Shown here piece after piece: positions 5,107-15,200 of a DNA stretch of 52,185 nt. Source of the DNA: Candidatus Thorarchaeota archaeon SMTZ1-45 (GTDB lineage: Archaea; Asgardarchaeota; Thorarchaeia; Thorarchaeales; Thorarchaeaceae). Each line of letters begins with the position of its first letter. The first letter of the stretch is position 1. The notes below the pieces were generated by a model. The model saw nothing but the letters and a program-made list of their open reading frames with translations. It had not been told where the DNA came from and made no database searches. The translations under genes were made by a program, and so were the position numbers. The stretch spans positions 1-52,185 of the forward strand of contig LRSL01000089.1 in assembly GCA_001563335.1 (NCBI GenBank), given 5' to 3'.

Positions 5107-5487
5107 TTACCCGTGTAAATCCGAGGGTTCCCATAATTCGATCTTGTTCCCCTCAGGATCCATAAACCATGCAAACTTACCCTCAGGTGTTTCTTGAACT
5201 CCCTTCTCATCCACCTCAACGCCTCTTGATTTCAAATCTGCAACTATCTCCTCAATGTCACTCACAACAAAGTTAATCATCCAGGTCGAGTCGCTTGGGC
5301 TGAAGTATTTCGTGTCTTCGGGAAATGGTCCCCACAGAGTATAGCCTGGTGCCTTCAGGTCTTTCCATTTGAAGTAGACATACCCCTCCTCATCGGGTTT
5401 CAAACCTAGATTCTCTTCGTACCATTTCTGAAGTTTCGTTTTGTTATTTGACTTGAAGAAGACTCCTCCAATTCCTCTCACTGTCAT
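5107..5487 (-). CDS. VOC/glyoxalase family protein
   Basis: VRGIGGVFFK, MINFVV and GKFAWFMDPEGNKIELWEP motifs. Confidence 0.92.
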   Translation of the reverse strand: MTVRGIGGVFFKSNNKTKLQKWYEENLGLKPDEEGYVYFKWKDLKAPGYTLWGPFPEDTKYFSPSDSTWMINFVVSDIEEIVADLKSRGVEVDEKGVQETPEGKFAWFMDPEGNKIELWEPSDLHG

Positions 5488-5553
5488 TGTTCATTTCACT
5501 GACTTCCACGATATGACCAATCTATATGTTAGTTCAGGTATGGAAGGATTTCA

Positions 5554-7131
5554 TCAACTTCTTTTTCGCAGACTATATCCAATGATTAGCAAAACAACCA
5601 CAACAACAACAACAGTGATCAAAATCTCAAGTAGTATTGGACTTCCTAATGATACAGGTGGAGGAGAAAAAATCCAAACCATTGTGTCACTCATACCTCC
5701 ACCGTACTCATCTTGAACTGCTCTAAGTGTTGGAAGGTCATCCGAGCTTGTATATCCAATAACCGCAATGTTACCACCAGCAATAGACATGCCCAACACA
5801 TAGTCATTCATCTGACCTCCAAAATAACTACCAAATGCAACACTTGGCGTTTCTCCTCTAATGAGAGCGATATACCCATCAGTACCACCACTACAGTTCT
5901 GTTGAAACGGGTTTACTGTGGGCATATCAGTGGATGCAGTCGGCATTGTAATTAATATTGCATCACCTGGAAGAACCTCCATTGCATATGAGCGATCTTC
6001 AAGATTGCCTCCAAGGTAACTTGACAAAAGAAGACTATCACCGTTTCCACTCAGTTTTGCGAAGAATGCATCATATGCCGCAGTGTTATTCTGTAGTTGG
6101 TTTTCTAGTGGAAAATCTGAAGATCCTGTGTATCCTGACACGACGATATTGTTACTGGAATCGAAGCCTACCTGGTCCCCAAACTCCCAACCATTCCCTC
6201 CCAACAATGATGACCAATAAAGGGATGAGCAATCCGATGTGAACTTGGCTACAAAACAGTCCGTTAGCCCACCACCGTAGGTCTGCTGGTATGCAGAGTC
6301 AGTTGCTACTGCATCTCCATTAGTCATTCCAACAATTACCAGGTCGCCGGTTGCATCAATACCAACAGCCCATGCATCATCGGCTGTTGTGTTACCAAAG
6401 AAAGTTGATGAAATAATGGAATGATTTTCACTGCCCATCGATGTGATGAAGACATCAGAGTTTCCGCCTCCAAAGCTCTCTTGATAGGCACCCGGACTTG
6501 TGAAGAAGTCAGCTGACTCAGTGGACCCAACGATTACATAGTTCCCATTAAAATCAAGGACAATGTCCTCTATGCGATCAGATTCATTGCCACCAAAATA
6601 TGTCGAGAAAATAAGAGTCCCATTACTACTGAATTTCGCCAGAAATGCATCAGAGGGTCCGTTCAACTCTTCCTGGATTGGGTTCAAGACTGTGAGATTG
6701 TCTGAACTTGTACCTCCAGCAACGATGATATATCCGTAAGCATCAACTAACAGTGCCATTGGCTCTTCAAGTCCACTCCCACCAAAGTAAGTATAGAACT
6801 CAACCTGGTACTGAGGATTCAACTTCACAATGAATGCATCTCCTCCTCCTCTGTATTCCTCTTGATGTGCGTTGACAACCGGAAGTCCAGATGACCTAGT
6901 CATACCGGTCAGTACAAAGCTACCATCAGTACAACAGTAAATATCATTTGACCACTCCTCGCCATCTCCACCAAAATAGGAACAAAATAGTACATCTAGC
7001 CCCTTAGTAGCTATTACCTCCTCCAAAGAAATGCTAGTCTGAGCTACGTACTGTCCTCGACCTGTTTCAATCAAAACAACTCCTGAAATGAATATAAGAA
7101 AGACTGCGAGAGTCATCAAACGCATTACCAA
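5554..7131 (-). CDS. SBBP-type beta-propeller repeat surface protein with signal peptide and C-terminal TM anchor
   Basis: Repeated STYFGG..D...I.D..G...V.G.T.S.D...DAF..K blades. Hydrophobic N-terminus, and a C-terminal hydrophobic helix followed by RKRS. Confidence 0.88.
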   Translation of the reverse strand: MVMRLMTLAVFLIFISGVVLIETGRGQYVAQTSISLEEVIATKGLDVLFCSYFGGDGEEWSNDIYCCTDGSFVLTGMTRSSGLPVVNAHQEEYRGGGDAFIVKLNPQYQVEFYTYFGGSGLEEPMALLVDAYGYIIVAGGTSSDNLTVLNPIQEELNGPSDAFLAKFSSNGTLIFSTYFGGNESDRIEDIVLDFNGNYVIVGSTESADFFTSPGAYQESFGGGNSDVFITSMGSENHSIISSTFFGNTTADDAWAVGIDATGDLVIVGMTNGDAVATDSAYQQTYGGGLTDCFVAKFTSDCSSLYWSSLLGGNGWEFGDQVGFDSSNNIVVSGYTGSSDFPLENQLQNNTAAYDAFFAKLSGNGDSLLLSSYLGGNLEDRSYAMEVLPGDAILITMPTASTDMPTVNPFQQNCSGGTDGYIALIRGETPSVAFGSYFGGQMNDYVLGMSIAGGNIAVIGYTSSDDLPTLRAVQDEYGGGMSDTMVWIFSPPPVSLGSPILLEILITVVVVVVVLLIIGYSLRKRS

Positions 7132-10680: not shown

Positions 10681-11607
10681 TTGAGGGGCATCAAGTTGAC
10701 ACGAGCAATAGTTGAGGTTGAGATACGAATTCTCTCAGACGGGAATGTTGAGAATTGGAGAGTCTTGGGAGAGGCTGGATTTACTGCCCTCGTCAAAGTC
10801 ACTTATGATGACACGAGCGAATTCCAATTCCTCTTTGATACAGGGGGAGGGACTCCCGCCTTGGAGCACAATGTGGGTGTTATGAAAGACACCTTGAAAC
10901 GAGATTTATCTCCTATTGAAATGATAGTCCTCAGTCATGGACATTGGGATCATACTGCAGGTTTGTTGAAAGTCATAGCGATGACTAAAAAACGAGTACC
11001 TGTCCTGTGTCATCCAGATGCACTCCTACATAAGATATTCACCTCTGATGACGGAAAGCGCCACGAAATCGGAATTCATGAGTACTACACCAAGTCTGAG
11101 CTTGAGTCTAGGACTGAGGTCATTGCCACTACAGAACCATATGCTATCGCTGATGGGATAATGACCACTGGTGTCGTTCCTCGTACTAATGCCTTTGAAA
11201 AGCTGACTGGACGCTTACAAAAGATTATGATTATTAGAGATGGAGAAGAAACCCCTGATTTGATTGAAGATGACCTCTCGGTTGTTTTCCACTTGAAAGA
11301 TGACTCAGTTGCAGTTCTTACAGGTTGCTGCCATTCTGGGATTGTCAACACAATCAGTCATGCGACAAAACTTACCGGGTCCTCATCTATTGTCGGTATC
11401 ATAGGTGGATTTCATCTCCACGACGCATCAAAGGAACGCTTGACCAGTACCGTTGAACATCTCGGTCATTACCCACTCTCTATAATTGCACCATGTCATT
11501 GCACAGGTCTTAGAGGTCGTTCTGCCCTCATGAATGCATTCGAGGGTCCATTCAAGGATATTGGTGTAGGCTCAGTAGTCAAGTTTGAGGCAAGACAGAC
11601 TGAATGA
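10681..11607 (+). CDS. MBL-fold hydrolase, COG1237-like (dihydropteroate synthase-related)
   Basis: LFDTG, VLSHGHWDHTAG, TGCCHSG, GGFHL and PCHCTG motifs. Confidence 0.85.
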   Translation: MRGIKLTRAIVEVEIRILSDGNVENWRVLGEAGFTALVKVTYDDTSEFQFLFDTGGGTPALEHNVGVMKDTLKRDLSPIEMIVLSHGHWDHTAGLLKVIAMTKKRVPVLCHPDALLHKIFTSDDGKRHEIGIHEYYTKSELESRTEVIATTEPYAIADGIMTTGVVPRTNAFEKLTGRLQKIMIIRDGEETPDLIEDDLSVVFHLKDDSVAVLTGCCHSGIVNTISHATKLTGSSSIVGIIGGFHLHDASKERLTSTVEHLGHYPLSIIAPCHCTGLRGRSALMNAFEGPFKDIGVGSVVKFEARQTE

Positions 11608-12653
11608 AGTCGCTGACCAAGTCCGCTATCATTCTTGCACCAGCAGTGTTCAAATGCAGATAATCAACATGAAGAGAGAAGCCTGCGCTCTTCGATATTG
11701 TATCCCAGCTTTTCCTGAGAAGATAGCGGTTGATGATAACCTTGATGATACCTAAGTAGTATCTCTCATAAGGATATGTTTGCCCTACCGGAGAATTCTG
11801 AAGTGATTCATTCATTCTCTCATGCAAGGGTGGTCAACAGCTGCTGAAACCTTTGACAAAGTTGGACATCCTTTAAATGATCGTTTGAGCCATTGTTGTA
11901 GGTCTTTAAATATCATTATCAGGCGACAGAACTCTGAGGTCGCCCGGACACGCACCTGACCTCGCAGAGTCCACCCAGTGCCGTTTCCTGGGAGTACAAC
12001 GCTCTGGTGTCCAAGATTGTACAACATACAATGAACGGTAGGTATGCAACATTCATTTCTTCAGCTATATGCTGTATAATGCTACTATACTCAGAACTCC
12101 TAATGAACGCTGGATGACTGAAATCCTCTCCAATTGGAGGAATTGAAAGGAGTGCAATTCTTGCATTTGTTTCTGTTCTAAGCCTCTTCACAAGTGATTG
12201 AAGGCAATCTTCATACCAACTCGAATCGGGATCTCTTGGAAGTTTCATTCTCATTACATAGCTCTTCATCGCATCTGAAGACATAGTAGCATTTACGTCA
12301 TCAGTACCAATGAGTACGGTAACAACATCCGGGTCGCACTGAATGACCTCTTCGACTCGTTGTAGATTGTTCCATGCAAGTTCAGAGTTTATACCTGCAT
12401 TAATGAACTCGAAAGACTCACTCTCGAATCTCTCCTGAACCATGTCTACATAGTTAACGCCAACTCTTCCGTGAGTTATGCTATCTCCCAAAAAGACTAC
12501 AACACTCTTTCGAACATCTTTCTGAGGATGTGCTCTTAGGTATGTTGAAGGAGTTTTTTCGGGTTTCTTCATTGACTGATAGAAGGCATATCCTGTGAGA
12601 GGAATAAGAACAAGAATGAGTAAACCAAACAAGAACAGGAGTTGCCCCAGCAT
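11579..12653 (-). pseudogene. SGNH/GDSL hydrolase interrupted by a 208-bp insertion
   Basis: The N-terminal part (12653-12037) has GDSIT, NAGIN and LIGTDD. The C-terminal part (11830-11579) has the catalytic D-YL-H-LN..GA motif. Removing 208 nt joins them in frame as ...VAYLPLHERM... Confidence 0.85.
11829..12039. mobile_element. Small non-coding structured insertion (205 bp plus a 3-bp GGT direct repeat)
   Basis: GGT occurs at 11829-11831 and 12037-12039. The insert breaks the GDSL frame, contains several nested inverted repeats and encodes no transposase. Confidence 0.65.
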
Positions 12654-13219: not shown

Positions 13220-13391
13220 AATATTTCGCCATTTTTGAGTCCATTTGCGCATTTTGATAACAAAAGAGTCTGAAAAAGAGAATTAATAAGACAACTTGTT
13301 ATACGTTGGAGGTTGTTGCGAGGCAGAGTGGACAGTCGATTCCTGCGGATGTTGATTGATTGTTATAGTCGCAAACGGGAGTAGAGCCTCA

Positions 13392-15200
13392 ATGAATATT
13401 GAGAAGAAAGCATGTTTGCTAGTTGTATCACTTACTTTAGTGCTAGTCTTACTGAATGTAGTACCTGCGGTCGTGTCTTCATCTGGAGTTGATCATTCTC
13501 TTAGTGCATCTCGGAATGATTTCTCTTTGTCCCAAACCGGAACGATTGAACCTCTCGAAACAACAATTAATTTAGTGGGGACCCATGGCTCAGGAGGCTG
13601 GTATGTTTCAGATGTCACCGTCACATTCTCTGTGTTTAGTTCAGCAGACGAATACACTACTGCATATAGCTATGATGGTGAAAACTGGATCATCTATAGT
13701 GATGCCTTTGTGGTATCAACTGAGGGGGATACCACTATTTACTATAACTCAACTGACTCTTCTGGATTTATTGAAGGTACAAAGGAAGAAATAATTAGAA
13801 TTGATAAGACAGCTCCAGAACTCAACCTTGAAACAGAAAACGTTCCTGGTGAAGGTACTTTTGTAACATTGAGTGCAATTGAATATGGTTCTGGCCTTGC
13901 TAGTATTGCATACAGTCTTGATGGAAAACGTTTGGAACGCTATGTAGATCCCTTTAATATCTCTACTGAAGGTTTTCACACCGTTTTCTATCAGGCTCAA
14001 GATTTCGCTGGTAATTTAGCAACTAAGACTGAAACCATCGAAGTGATCATTGAACCTATCGCCATCCCAACAGAAGTTATCTACAAAGGTGACACATCAG
14101 GTGTTTATTCTGACCAGATTACTCTTAAAGCGCAGCTTATGGATTCGATGAATGATGTACCACTTGCTGATAGATTAATCAAATTCACAGTTGGAGCACA
14201 AACAATGACTGTGATCACCGACTCTGATGGAGTTGCATCTTGCTTATTAATCCTAGATCAACCAGCTGGGATTTATATGGTTTCTGCAACCTTTGAGGGC
14301 GAGATTGGGTACCTTGATTCATCAACCACTGCTGAGTTCGTTCTTGGAAAGGAGTCTGCAACCACTTATTATACTGGTCTGACAATCATTGAAGAAAAGG
14401 ATGAAACCTTAACCCTGATTGCCACTGTGTTCGAAGAAAATGATGGCTTCTTAGGTGACTTGACTAAGATCTATGTGACCTTTACACTCTATTCATCAGC
14501 TGATTCTTCTACACCTATCGATGTAATCGGTCCTATCATGGTCATGCCTACTGATATGGCAGGAGTTGGGATTGCCATTGCAGAAGTCCCTAACTTAGAT
14601 GAGGGAGAGTATCTGGTTGTTGTTAGTCTTTGTCCCGAATACAACTTTCACTACAGCAGTCCCGATTCGGATGCTGCTATTCTAACCATCTATGAACCTT
14701 CTCGAGGTAAAGCGACAGGTGCCGGTTGGATTCGTGACTCGGATGGAAACAAGGGGCATTTTGTCTTCCTTGTACAATACAGCTGCCGAGGAACTCTGAA
14801 GGGCTTTGCTTACTACACTGTTCGAATTGACAATCTAGTGTATTTTGTAAAGACTACTGAAATCACTGGATTCTCAATTGATGGGAATCATGCCTTCTTT
14901 GAAGCAATCTGTACAATCTATGTGATTAACTTAGATATGTGTGAGAAAATCCAACTAGAGGAGAGCTTTAGGCTTCGGATAGATGTTTGGGACTACAAGA
15001 AACGATGTAGAAATGATATCTTTCAGATTCAAATCTTTGACCAATACGGAGTGGTTGTGTATGAGGCTGGATTTGATCCTCTAGGTTATATACACCGAGG
15101 AAACATAGTAATCCATAGTTATCGATGGAAACATCACTCACACCACTATCATCATTGGAAGCATCGGTCGTGCTGCCATCATAAAATGCGGCATTGGTAA
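13392..15200 (+). CDS. Secreted Ig-like multi-domain protein with a His/Cys/Trp-rich C-terminal tail
   Basis: Signal peptide. GWY.SDVTV...EG..TIYY.S.D..G and IDKTAP Ig-like repeats, a GKATGAGWI beta domain, and the tail HSYRWKHHSHHYHHWKHRSCCHHKMRHW. Confidence 0.8.
   Translation: MNIEKKACLLVVSLTLVLVLLNVVPAVVSSSGVDHSLSASRNDFSLSQTGTIEPLETTINLVGTHGSGGWYVSDVTVTFSVFSSADEYTTAYSYDGENWIIYSDAFVVSTEGDTTIYYNSTDSSGFIEGTKEEIIRIDKTAPELNLETENVPGEGTFVTLSAIEYGSGLASIAYSLDGKRLERYVDPFNISTEGFHTVFYQAQDFAGNLATKTETIEVIIEPIAIPTEVIYKGDTSGVYSDQITLKAQLMDSMNDVPLADRLIKFTVGAQTMTVITDSDGVASCLLILDQPAGIYMVSATFEGEIGYLDSSTTAEFVLGKESATTYYTGLTIIEEKDETLTLIATVFEENDGFLGDLTKIYVTFTLYSSADSSTPIDVIGPIMVMPTDMAGVGIAIAEVPNLDEGEYLVVVSLCPEYNFHYSSPDSDAAILTIYEPSRGKATGAGWIRDSDGNKGHFVFLVQYSCRGTLKGFAYYTVRIDNLVYFVKTTEITGFSIDGNHAFFEAICTIYVINLDMCEKIQLEESFRLRIDVWDYKKRCRNDIFQIQIFDQYGVVVYEAGFDPLGYIHRGNIVIHSYRWKHHSHHYHHWKHRSCCHHKMRHW

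Follow-up and report, generated by a model that had tools for sequence, protein, structure and literature searches.

A probable gene-less IS607-family derivative with a TnpB guide-RNA scaffold interrupts an SGNH hydrolase gene in a Thorarchaeota genome

An interrupted hydrolase gene

The window analysed here is the whole stretch of 52,185 nucleotides (nt) of contig LRSL01000089.1 (positions 1 to 52,185, forward strand) from Candidatus Thorarchaeota archaeon SMTZ1-45, and all positions refer to it unless a locus is named. On its minus strand, a gene for an SGNH/GDSL hydrolase is split into two reading frames by an insert of 208 nt. This insert, at 11832-12039, is very probably a non-autonomous derivative of the IS607 family, which is devoid of genes, carries a scaffold of the TnpB guide RNA (omega-RNA) and lies antisense within the hydrolase gene. 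The gene and its insert comprise the following parts:

12040..12653, minus strand: hydrolase 5' part, ending ...NVAYLP (translation of the open reading frame (ORF), Pfam Lipase_GDSL_2, whole orthologues at loci L014, L016 and L017)
11579..11831, minus strand: hydrolase 3' part, in another frame and including the left-flank target bases (translation; orthologues reading YLP-LHE[RK]M over the break)
11832..12039, plus strand: very probable protein-less IS607-family mini-element, 208 nt (DNA matches in 15 of the genus's 28 genomes, flank alignments, end of similarity to the contigs of other copies at 12039/12040)

Residues 1-206 of the hydrolase (...NVAYLP; Lipase_GDSL_2, E 3.3e-16) are read from 12653 to 12036, and the remainder (LHERMNE...DYLHLN...) follows in a different frame from 11827 to 11579. 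The three orthologues with complete sequence (L014, L016, L017) are uninterrupted proteins of 288 amino acids (aa), which read YLPLHE[KR]M over the break site. Among 24 other genomes of the genus, 17 gave stop-free matches to the N-terminal part, as did none of 16 genomes from other genera of the phylum. An earlier note on this DNA had drawn the insert as 143 nt long (11891-12033); since the two frames are separated by 208 nt and whole orthologues of 288 aa exist, its real extent is 208 nt, about 11832-12039. As 208 leaves a remainder of one on division by three, taking the insert out restores the hydrolase frame, and every placement of the junction gives back A-Y-L-P-L-H-E.

Ends of the element and reality of the insertion

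The ends of the element were defined by flank alignments with 15, later 29, full-length copies from other genomes. Conservation begins on the left at (A)GGGT and stops on the right at ...ACAATGAACGGT, and the flanks are unrelated between copies. The junction repeat is imperfect, AAGGGT (11826-31) against AACGGT (12034-39), which makes the element shiftable by up to six bases, with GGT standing at both junctions of the insert; beyond this repeat, neither terminal inverted repeats nor a target duplication were found in the 15 and 29 copies with their flanks. Similarly, in contigs of other family copies from four metagenome runs the similarity ends exactly at 12039/12040. Three features at the ends may be involved in transposition:

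11827..11831, plus strand: AGGGT beside the left end, the presumed target of TnpA and a motif resembling the target-adjacent motif (TAM) of TnpB, with GG at 11829-11830 as one possible core dinucleotide (GGGT nearly invariant in 29 full-length copies)
11853..11868, plus strand: left-end subterminal repeats TTGACAA and TTGGACA, candidate binding sites of the serine-recombinase transposase TnpA(Ser) (GACAAAGTTGGACAT kept in mini-element copies)
12008..12024, plus strand: right-end subterminal repeats TGTCCAA and TTGTACAA, inverted relative to those of the left end, candidate TnpA(Ser) sites that overlap the RNA (reading of the sequence)

The insertion is real and no assembly artefact. In one metagenome run (X1) a single contig spans 11500-12400 with 0 differences; it is the sole contig to bridge the left junction, and X1 is possibly the source sample and hence not independent. 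The right junction is also bridged without difference in X2 (11875-12243) and X3 (11923-12330), which come from two further studies.

At the orthologous YLPLHE sites of L014, L016 and L017 the codons are CCA TTA or CCA CTA, without a GGG motif (CCC in the sense of the gene). Judged from these codons, a choice made only in this lineage may have turned the hydrolase site into a target.

A mobile family with IS607 parentage

Within its own genome the 208-nt element is single-copy by DNA search (all other matches having E >= 0.7), and DNA matches to it occur in 15 of the 28 genomes of the genus, this one included, with up to 33 per genome and many at contig ends. A covariance model of three helices (A, C and D) of the RNA described below yielded 165 matches in 16 of the 28 genomes; among the matches listed, the 84 that score at least 100 bits are of the protein-less type and match by construction, the model having been built from 59 such copies.

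The parentage of the family is indicated by longer forms with the same ends. Some DNA matches consist of the two ends only (element bases 1-42 and 147-208), separated by 370-480 nt, and these intervals carry a TnpA N-terminal remnant, a TnpB zinc-ribbon remnant, or both (genome G001, contigs 46 and 17); they are deletion intermediates between the same ends. At locus L056 the order is left end, tnpA, tnpB, right end: the left-end match is followed by tnpA (L056:443-1045; Resolvase, E 2.2e-21, plus HTH_17/MerR), and then by a tnpB-like gene whose stop codon abuts the right-end match. GACAAAGTTGGACAT lies 25-45 nt upstream of tnpA(Ser) in four loci (L056/L101, L108, L110 and L103), and the right end of the element matches the 3' ends of tnpB genes for proteins of about 700 aa, which are read towards that end. 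Because its left end is like the DNA upstream of serine tnpA and its right end like tnpB 3' ends, we consider the insert to be a miniature IS607-family element. TnpA(Ser) itself is present in 7 of the 28 genomes.

A one-sided conserved flank had first suggested membership in IS200/IS605. This assignment was dropped, since its Y1 TnpA (PF01797) was found in none of five genomes, while control genomes gave matches, and since a serine tnpA lies beside the left end. A tRNA scan of the window found 0 genes.

A pseudoknotted RNA supported by covariation

The earlier note had listed complementary segments in and around a GC-rich core and read them as an RNA-like fold with two mutually exclusive pairings, enclosed by an outer stem. 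All of these segments lie where it placed them, and its count of 56 G or C among the 90 nt of 11921-12010 is exact. Among the checks that it proposed, comparison with shuffled sequence gave energies no better than those of shuffles on either strand, but the homologues do covary. For 11885-12040, the energy is equalled or bettered by 108 of 200 shuffles on the plus strand (z = +0.15) and by 56 of 200 on the minus strand (z = -0.61); for 11935-12039 the corresponding figures are 166/200 (z = +0.84) and 128/200 (z = +0.50).

Covariation was assessed in an alignment (A2) of 59 homologous copies, with a model of five helices, A to E, for which partners slid by 1-3 columns and 500 shuffles served as controls. 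In this model 93.9% of 1651 cells are paired, versus 32-45% with slid partners, and compensatory change is seen in 11 pairs and 83 cells; none of the 500 shuffles attains any of these values, a control that overstates significance as the copies are related, whereas the slid-partner control is free of this flaw.

11935..12039, plus strand: omega-RNA-like scaffold with five covarying helices (covariation in 59 copies)
11935..11964, plus strand: helix A, the first stem-loop (nexus-like), 11935-41 with 11958-64; 97.6% paired, one pair being UA in 47 copies, AU in 6, CG in 1 and GC in 1
11947..12011, plus strand: helix B, a pseudoknot of GACAC (11947-51, in the loop of A) with GTGTC (12007-11); 92-100% paired, with CG replaced by UA in 3 copies and AU by GC in 2 (compensatory)
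11965..12006, plus strand: helix C, CAGAG (11965-69) with CTCTG (12002-06); 97.3% paired, one pair being AU in 40 copies and GC in 13
11974..11992, plus strand: helix D, CCCAG (11974-78) with CTGGG (11988-92); 98.6% paired, with CG in 45 copies and UA in 13
11994..12022, plus strand: helix E, GTACAA (11994-99) with TTGTAC (12017-22), crossing B and C; its variable pair is GC in 24 copies, CG in 17, UA in 15 and unpaired in 3 (n = 59)

One pair of helix A is U-G in 46 of the 59 copies. As this pair would be a mismatch on the opposite strand, the RNA is assigned to the plus strand, which is the tnpB strand and antisense to the hydrolase gene. The position of helix B in the loop of A and the crossing of B and C by helix E make the structure a pseudoknotted one, and this is why the energies of nested folds look ordinary.

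The pairings of the earlier note fared unequally under this comparison. Covariation backs its CAGAG/CTCTG and CCCAG/CTGGG stems. GGACAC/GTGTCC persists as five base pairs (11947-51/12007-11), its outermost G-C pair occurring in only 5 of 58 copies. In the pairing considered an alternative, the GAGGTC/GACCTC core covaries, whereas the ACTCT/AGAGT extension is paired in 19 to 57 of 59 copies, depending on position, without compensatory change; no compensatory pattern emerged when helix A was extended either continuously or with the GC bulge that the earlier note had drawn. The outer stem TGTTGTA/TACAACA and the GGCGAC/GTCGCC stem found no support: in 29 full-length copies 63.9% of their cells are paired, where shuffles average 64.3% and 364 of 500 do at least as well. 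Helix E, which had been missed, occupies bases that the outer stem requires. Nor are there two mutually exclusive folds, for the GAGGTC/GACCTC and GGACAC/GTGTCC helices both covary and have no bases in common; the supposed alternatives are more plausibly one stem-loop with a loop that pairs further downstream, i.e. a pseudoknot. Likewise, a self-contained domain closed by an outer stem is not supported, and the RNA probably begins near 11935 and leaves the element at 12039. With a start near 11935, ACTCT and GGCGAC would fall outside the transcript.

The more general suggestion, that the element carries a structured non-coding RNA, holds, and among the options that it named the guide type, here a TnpB omega-RNA scaffold, is the one supported. 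The ribozyme and intron families also named did not appear: in the whole window, Rfam families including HEARO/IscB omega-RNA, HDV-like and other ribozymes and group I/II introns gave 0 matches at gathering score. Within 11780-12100, at E up to 10, the only matches were sub-threshold ones to toga_FSE (26.2 bits, gathering score 40), mir-1842 and SOX2OT.

Relation of the scaffold to tnpB

In the genome of SMTZ1-45 the covariance model identified four further places, though the DNA search had found the element only. Three of the four directly adjoin a TnpB zinc-ribbon match at its 3' end and share its strand (contig 69, 49.8 bits; contig 36, 33.7; contig 15, 30.4). In five genomes taken together, 25 of 38 weaker model matches (below 80 bits), these three included, lie immediately 3' of a PF07282 match and on its strand; conversely, 25 of 94 PF07282 matches have an adjoining model match, the rest being other TnpB types. 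All 10 tnpB loci searched have a match at the 3' end of the gene.

Helices D and E of the tnpB-linked copies are 92.3% paired versus 17-48% with slid partners, and show 7 compensatory pairs, in an alignment fitted to a model that contains helix D; helix D is 100% paired with 4 compensatory pairs. In full-length elements the bases of helix D overlap codons of the TnpB C-terminal ...PSAVSG. Predicted folds suggest that an analogous GAACAU hairpin or pairing may lie upstream of D in the tnpB-linked copies. Conservation of the scaffold stops at 12039 both in the 59 copies and in unrelated contigs of the four runs. As judged by sequence comparison, the plus-strand RNA structure of the mini-element is shown to be homologous to the scaffolds at tnpB 3' ends.

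The intact TnpBs concerned are proteins of 701-731 aa that match Cas12f1-like_TNB and, weakly, OrfB_IS605. Among solved proteins, those closest to them in sequence are Cas12f (7l48, E 3e-5) and TnpB-type proteins. An alignment of 7 TnpBs, two of which this genome encodes, shows no variation in the D, E, D and CxxC...CxxC motifs.

Promoter and proposed mode of action

Two further features bear on the expression and use of the RNA:

11905..11912, plus strand: candidate archaeal promoter of the RNA, with the TATA-like box TTTAAATA (TTTAWATA matched at 7 or more of its 8 positions in 25 of 29 full-length copies)
12040..12059, plus strand: predicted guide segment of the read-out transcript, its length being a guess (TnpB omega-RNA model)

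In all 29 full-length copies, 21-22 nt separate the TATA-like box from the first base of helix A, although the sequence of the spacer varies. The candidate promoter was called on what we take to be the archaeal consensus, TTTAWATA, and the usual archaeal spacing between TATA box and start. The mid-part of the element has no counterpart in full-length loci. Nothing is left in the mini-element but both transposon ends, a candidate TATA-type promoter and the omega-RNA scaffold.

Taken together, our analyses are best read as pointing to a self-transcribed TnpB omega-RNA that would use the flanking gene sequence as its guide. The element very probably inserted at a GGG(T) site, antisense, and it has broken the SGNH hydrolase gene. 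Transcription would start about 22 nt past the TATA box, run through the scaffold and pass out of the right end; the scaffold consists of a first stem-loop whose loop pairs downstream, a long hairpin of C and D, and the crossing helix E. The 3' part of the RNA would be hydrolase sequence from 12040 on and could serve as guide. A resident TnpB, acting in trans, could load this RNA and cut an element-free allele at the GGG motif beside the guide match, and recombinational repair would then restore the element at the cut locus, favouring its retention. Movement would require TnpA(Ser) supplied in trans.

Comparison with known systems

In the IStron of Clostridium botulinum, an IS607 example, the core dinucleotide has been described as GG and the target as 5'-TGGG, which at the same time is the TnpB TAM (Zedaveinyte et al., bioRxiv 10.1101/2023.11.20.567912). 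The omega-RNAs in that report form consecutive stem-loops, of which the first pairs with the 3' part of the scaffold, and some IS607 elements carry group I introns. Our element resembles the IStron in the HTH+Resolvase TnpA of its relatives, in the lack of inverted ends and of a duplication, in the GG at both junctions (left (A/T)GGG here versus the published TGGG target/TAM), and in a scaffold that stops at the right boundary and has its first stem-loop pseudoknotted downstream. It differs from the IStron by having no group I intron, a Thor-group archaeal host, a TnpB of about 700 aa and a second crossing helix (E); moreover, the copy here has lost both genes and appears to use a TATA box of its own for the RNA.

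Protein-less, omega-RNA-encoding IS200/IS605 elements that depend on TnpB in trans are known as well (Meers et al. 2023, PMC10055086). Like these palindrome-associated transposable elements (PATEs), the insert is a minimal non-autonomous element made of ends and omega-RNA, with TnpA and TnpB in trans. A PATE, however, moves single-stranded via a Y1 HUH transposase and has end hairpins, whereas the relatives here carry a serine recombinase; this and the finding of the Y1 HUH transposase in 0 of five genomes speak against an IS200/IS605 PATE. Likewise, the insert shares with classical miniature inverted-repeat transposable elements (MITEs) that it is short, multicopy, gene-less and found in or between genes, but it differs from a classical MITE in that terminal inverted repeats and a target-site duplication are missing.

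TnpB branches associated with serine recombinases, some of them archaea-specific and rarely with cargo genes, have been reported (Altae-Tran et al. 2023, PMC10691335). The relatives of our element correspond to them in pairing an archaeal TnpB with a serine TnpA and in sometimes having unknown cargo genes between the two, and differ by a cargo ORF of 1426-1659 aa, which is not named for these branches in the portion of that report considered here. The element belongs to an already known kind of selfish element, and this copy is a new example. Literature searches for IS607-type mini-elements with omega-RNA in archaea found no prior description, their scope being the articles and not the supplements, which may list some.

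Weighing the alternatives

Several observations weigh against an IS607-derived element with a working guide RNA. No Rfam family matches, whether in the whole window or in 11780-12100; the folding energy is ordinary on both strands, and the shuffle control of the covariation is inflated by the relatedness of the copies. A small invariant hairpin, TTGT/ACAA (12017-20/12028-31; 87.8% paired), would compete with helix E and is uninformative with regard to covariation. To helices A-C the tnpB-linked copies, in which tnpB codons take up the 5' half, offer nothing similar in sequence, and homology of this half of the scaffold would be argued from similar architecture only. Whether a resident TnpB is able to use the RNA is left in doubt by the scores of 30-50 bits of the scaffolds in the same genome, and TnpA(Ser) was not found in this assembly, which is 87.7% complete. 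Finally, the uninterrupted genes that attest the precision of the insertion belong to other species, and the contigs of the four DNA runs contain no joint that skips the element, i.e. no empty-site allele of the same lineage.

Some of these points would suit a mini-IS607 element with a dead relic RNA, with helices that are a legacy of parental omega-RNAs or that mirror TnpA binding sites in the DNA, and with no working guide. Its single copy and the missing TnpA(Ser) in its own genome fit such a relic, as does the overlap of the right-end repeats, which possibly bind TnpA, with helices B and E. We nevertheless judge it distinctly unlikely: compensatory changes are found among the protein-less copies in the very 5' half that is without sequence match in tnpB copies, the TATA-like box keeps its spacing of 21-22 nt in 29/29 copies despite drift of the spacer, and strand-specific U-G wobbles would not be expected of double-stranded binding sites.

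A self-splicing or enzyme-spliced intron (IStron-like group I or archaeal bulge-helix-bulge) that leaves the hydrolase gene working would account for the exact in-frame interruption and for the restoration of the frame on removal of 208 nt, and group I introns do occur in some IS607 elements (10.1101/2023.11.20.567912). This explanation is very improbable, as the conserved RNA lies on the antisense strand of the hydrolase gene (by its wobbles and by the orientation of tnpB) and as no intron family matches 11780-12100 in Rfam even below threshold. A group I core, moreover, needs more than 208 nt. At the six loci with ORFs listed (L035-L039 and L115) the copy lies between ORFs and not within one. 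A check of the junctions by hand revealed no bulge-helix-bulge motif that would give the correct exon join.

Equally little credence can be given to a ribozyme, a riboswitch or a two-state RNA switch that has nothing to do with transposition. It would be in keeping with several GC-rich helices and with the ability of ACTCT/AGAGT to extend helix A, in this copy, at the cost of helix C. Rfam offers no match for it, however; the extension is without compensatory change and has its 5' strand at or upstream of the predicted RNA start, and weaker homologues of the fold stand at tnpB 3' ends (25/38). An assembly chimera in the metagenome bin, as could be feared where repeats often misjoin contigs and many family copies sit at contig ends, has a negligible probability in view of the X1 contig over 11500-12400 and the right-junction contigs of X2 and X3, all with 0 differences (X1 being maybe the source sample, and the left junction bridged in X1 only).

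Implications

With an IS607-derived guide-RNA element, one known mechanism accounts for both the broken hydrolase gene and the odd GC-rich fold. The scaffold adds an omega-RNA family that is backed by covariation and absent from Rfam, and that belongs to large Asgard TnpBs; it also illustrates that a fold of unremarkable single-sequence energy can prove a real RNA on comparison of homologues. As a minimal cassette of promoter, scaffold of about 105 nt and boundary, the mini-element could guide the bench reconstitution of the nucleases of about 700 aa, which lie between TnpB and Cas12f in size.

A further-reaching conjecture, which we ourselves hold to be doubtful, is that the protein-less family goes beyond decayed IS copies and constitutes a self-transcribed guide-RNA parasite of IS607, with the 5' half of the scaffold rebuilt from non-coding sequence, an archaeal promoter of its own and dozens of loci per genome. 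If this were true, resident Thor-group TnpBs of about 700 aa (Cas12f-sized) would be loaded with many genome-derived guides, a natural state of dispersed multiple guides between the one-guide transposon and a CRISPR-like arrangement, and there could be regulatory side effects on the genes that are read into.

Cargo genes, TnpB types and neighbouring genes

Full-length elements with the same ends measure 8-9 kb, not about 3 kb (L127 = genome G015 contig 20, 400-8800; L128 = G015 contig 189, 8800-18500). In both, a giant ORF, of 1659 or 1426 aa, sits between tnpA(Ser) and tnpB. The two giant ORFs are homologues that share 27% identity across 900 aa (E 9e-70); neither has a Pfam match, and a protein atlas search with the 1659-aa ORF gave no usable match. 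A stretch '...VDLIL...LEIKT' resembles what is presumably a PD-(D/E)xK nuclease motif. The start of the giant ORF is also found beside tnpB in L055, L057 and L059. L128 has, between its giant ORF and tnpB, an ORF for a Rad51/RadA-like ATPase (5280-6278, plus strand; Pfam Rad51, E 5.1e-21).

At L055:3543-3651 and L059:2626-2711, both on the minus strand, the large tnpB ORF opens with codons (...QQTMDD...) that resemble the right-end terminus (...CAACAAACAATGGACGAT vs ...CAACTTACAATGAACGGT), and these two intervals are weak matches to the covariance model, with 16.5 and 13.5 bits. Many contigs of genomes G015 and G007 carry a second, commoner TnpB type (open frames of about 400 aa, PF07282 at 84-92 bits) that has no match to the omega-RNA model, so that at least two TnpB/omega-RNA systems are to be assumed in these two genomes.

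In the surroundings of the hydrolase gene, a gene of the metallo-beta-lactamase fold (10681-11607, plus strand) converges with the hydrolase 3' end (to 11579, minus strand), with an overlap of 29 nt (11579-11607), and the neighbourhood in L016 is alike. On the other side, at 13356-15200 of the plus strand, lies an ORF of 614 aa with a signal- or anchor-like N terminus and a His/Cys-rich tail (...HSYRWKHHSHHYHHWKHRSCCHHKMRHW), a homologue of which adjoins the hydrolase gene of L014 too.

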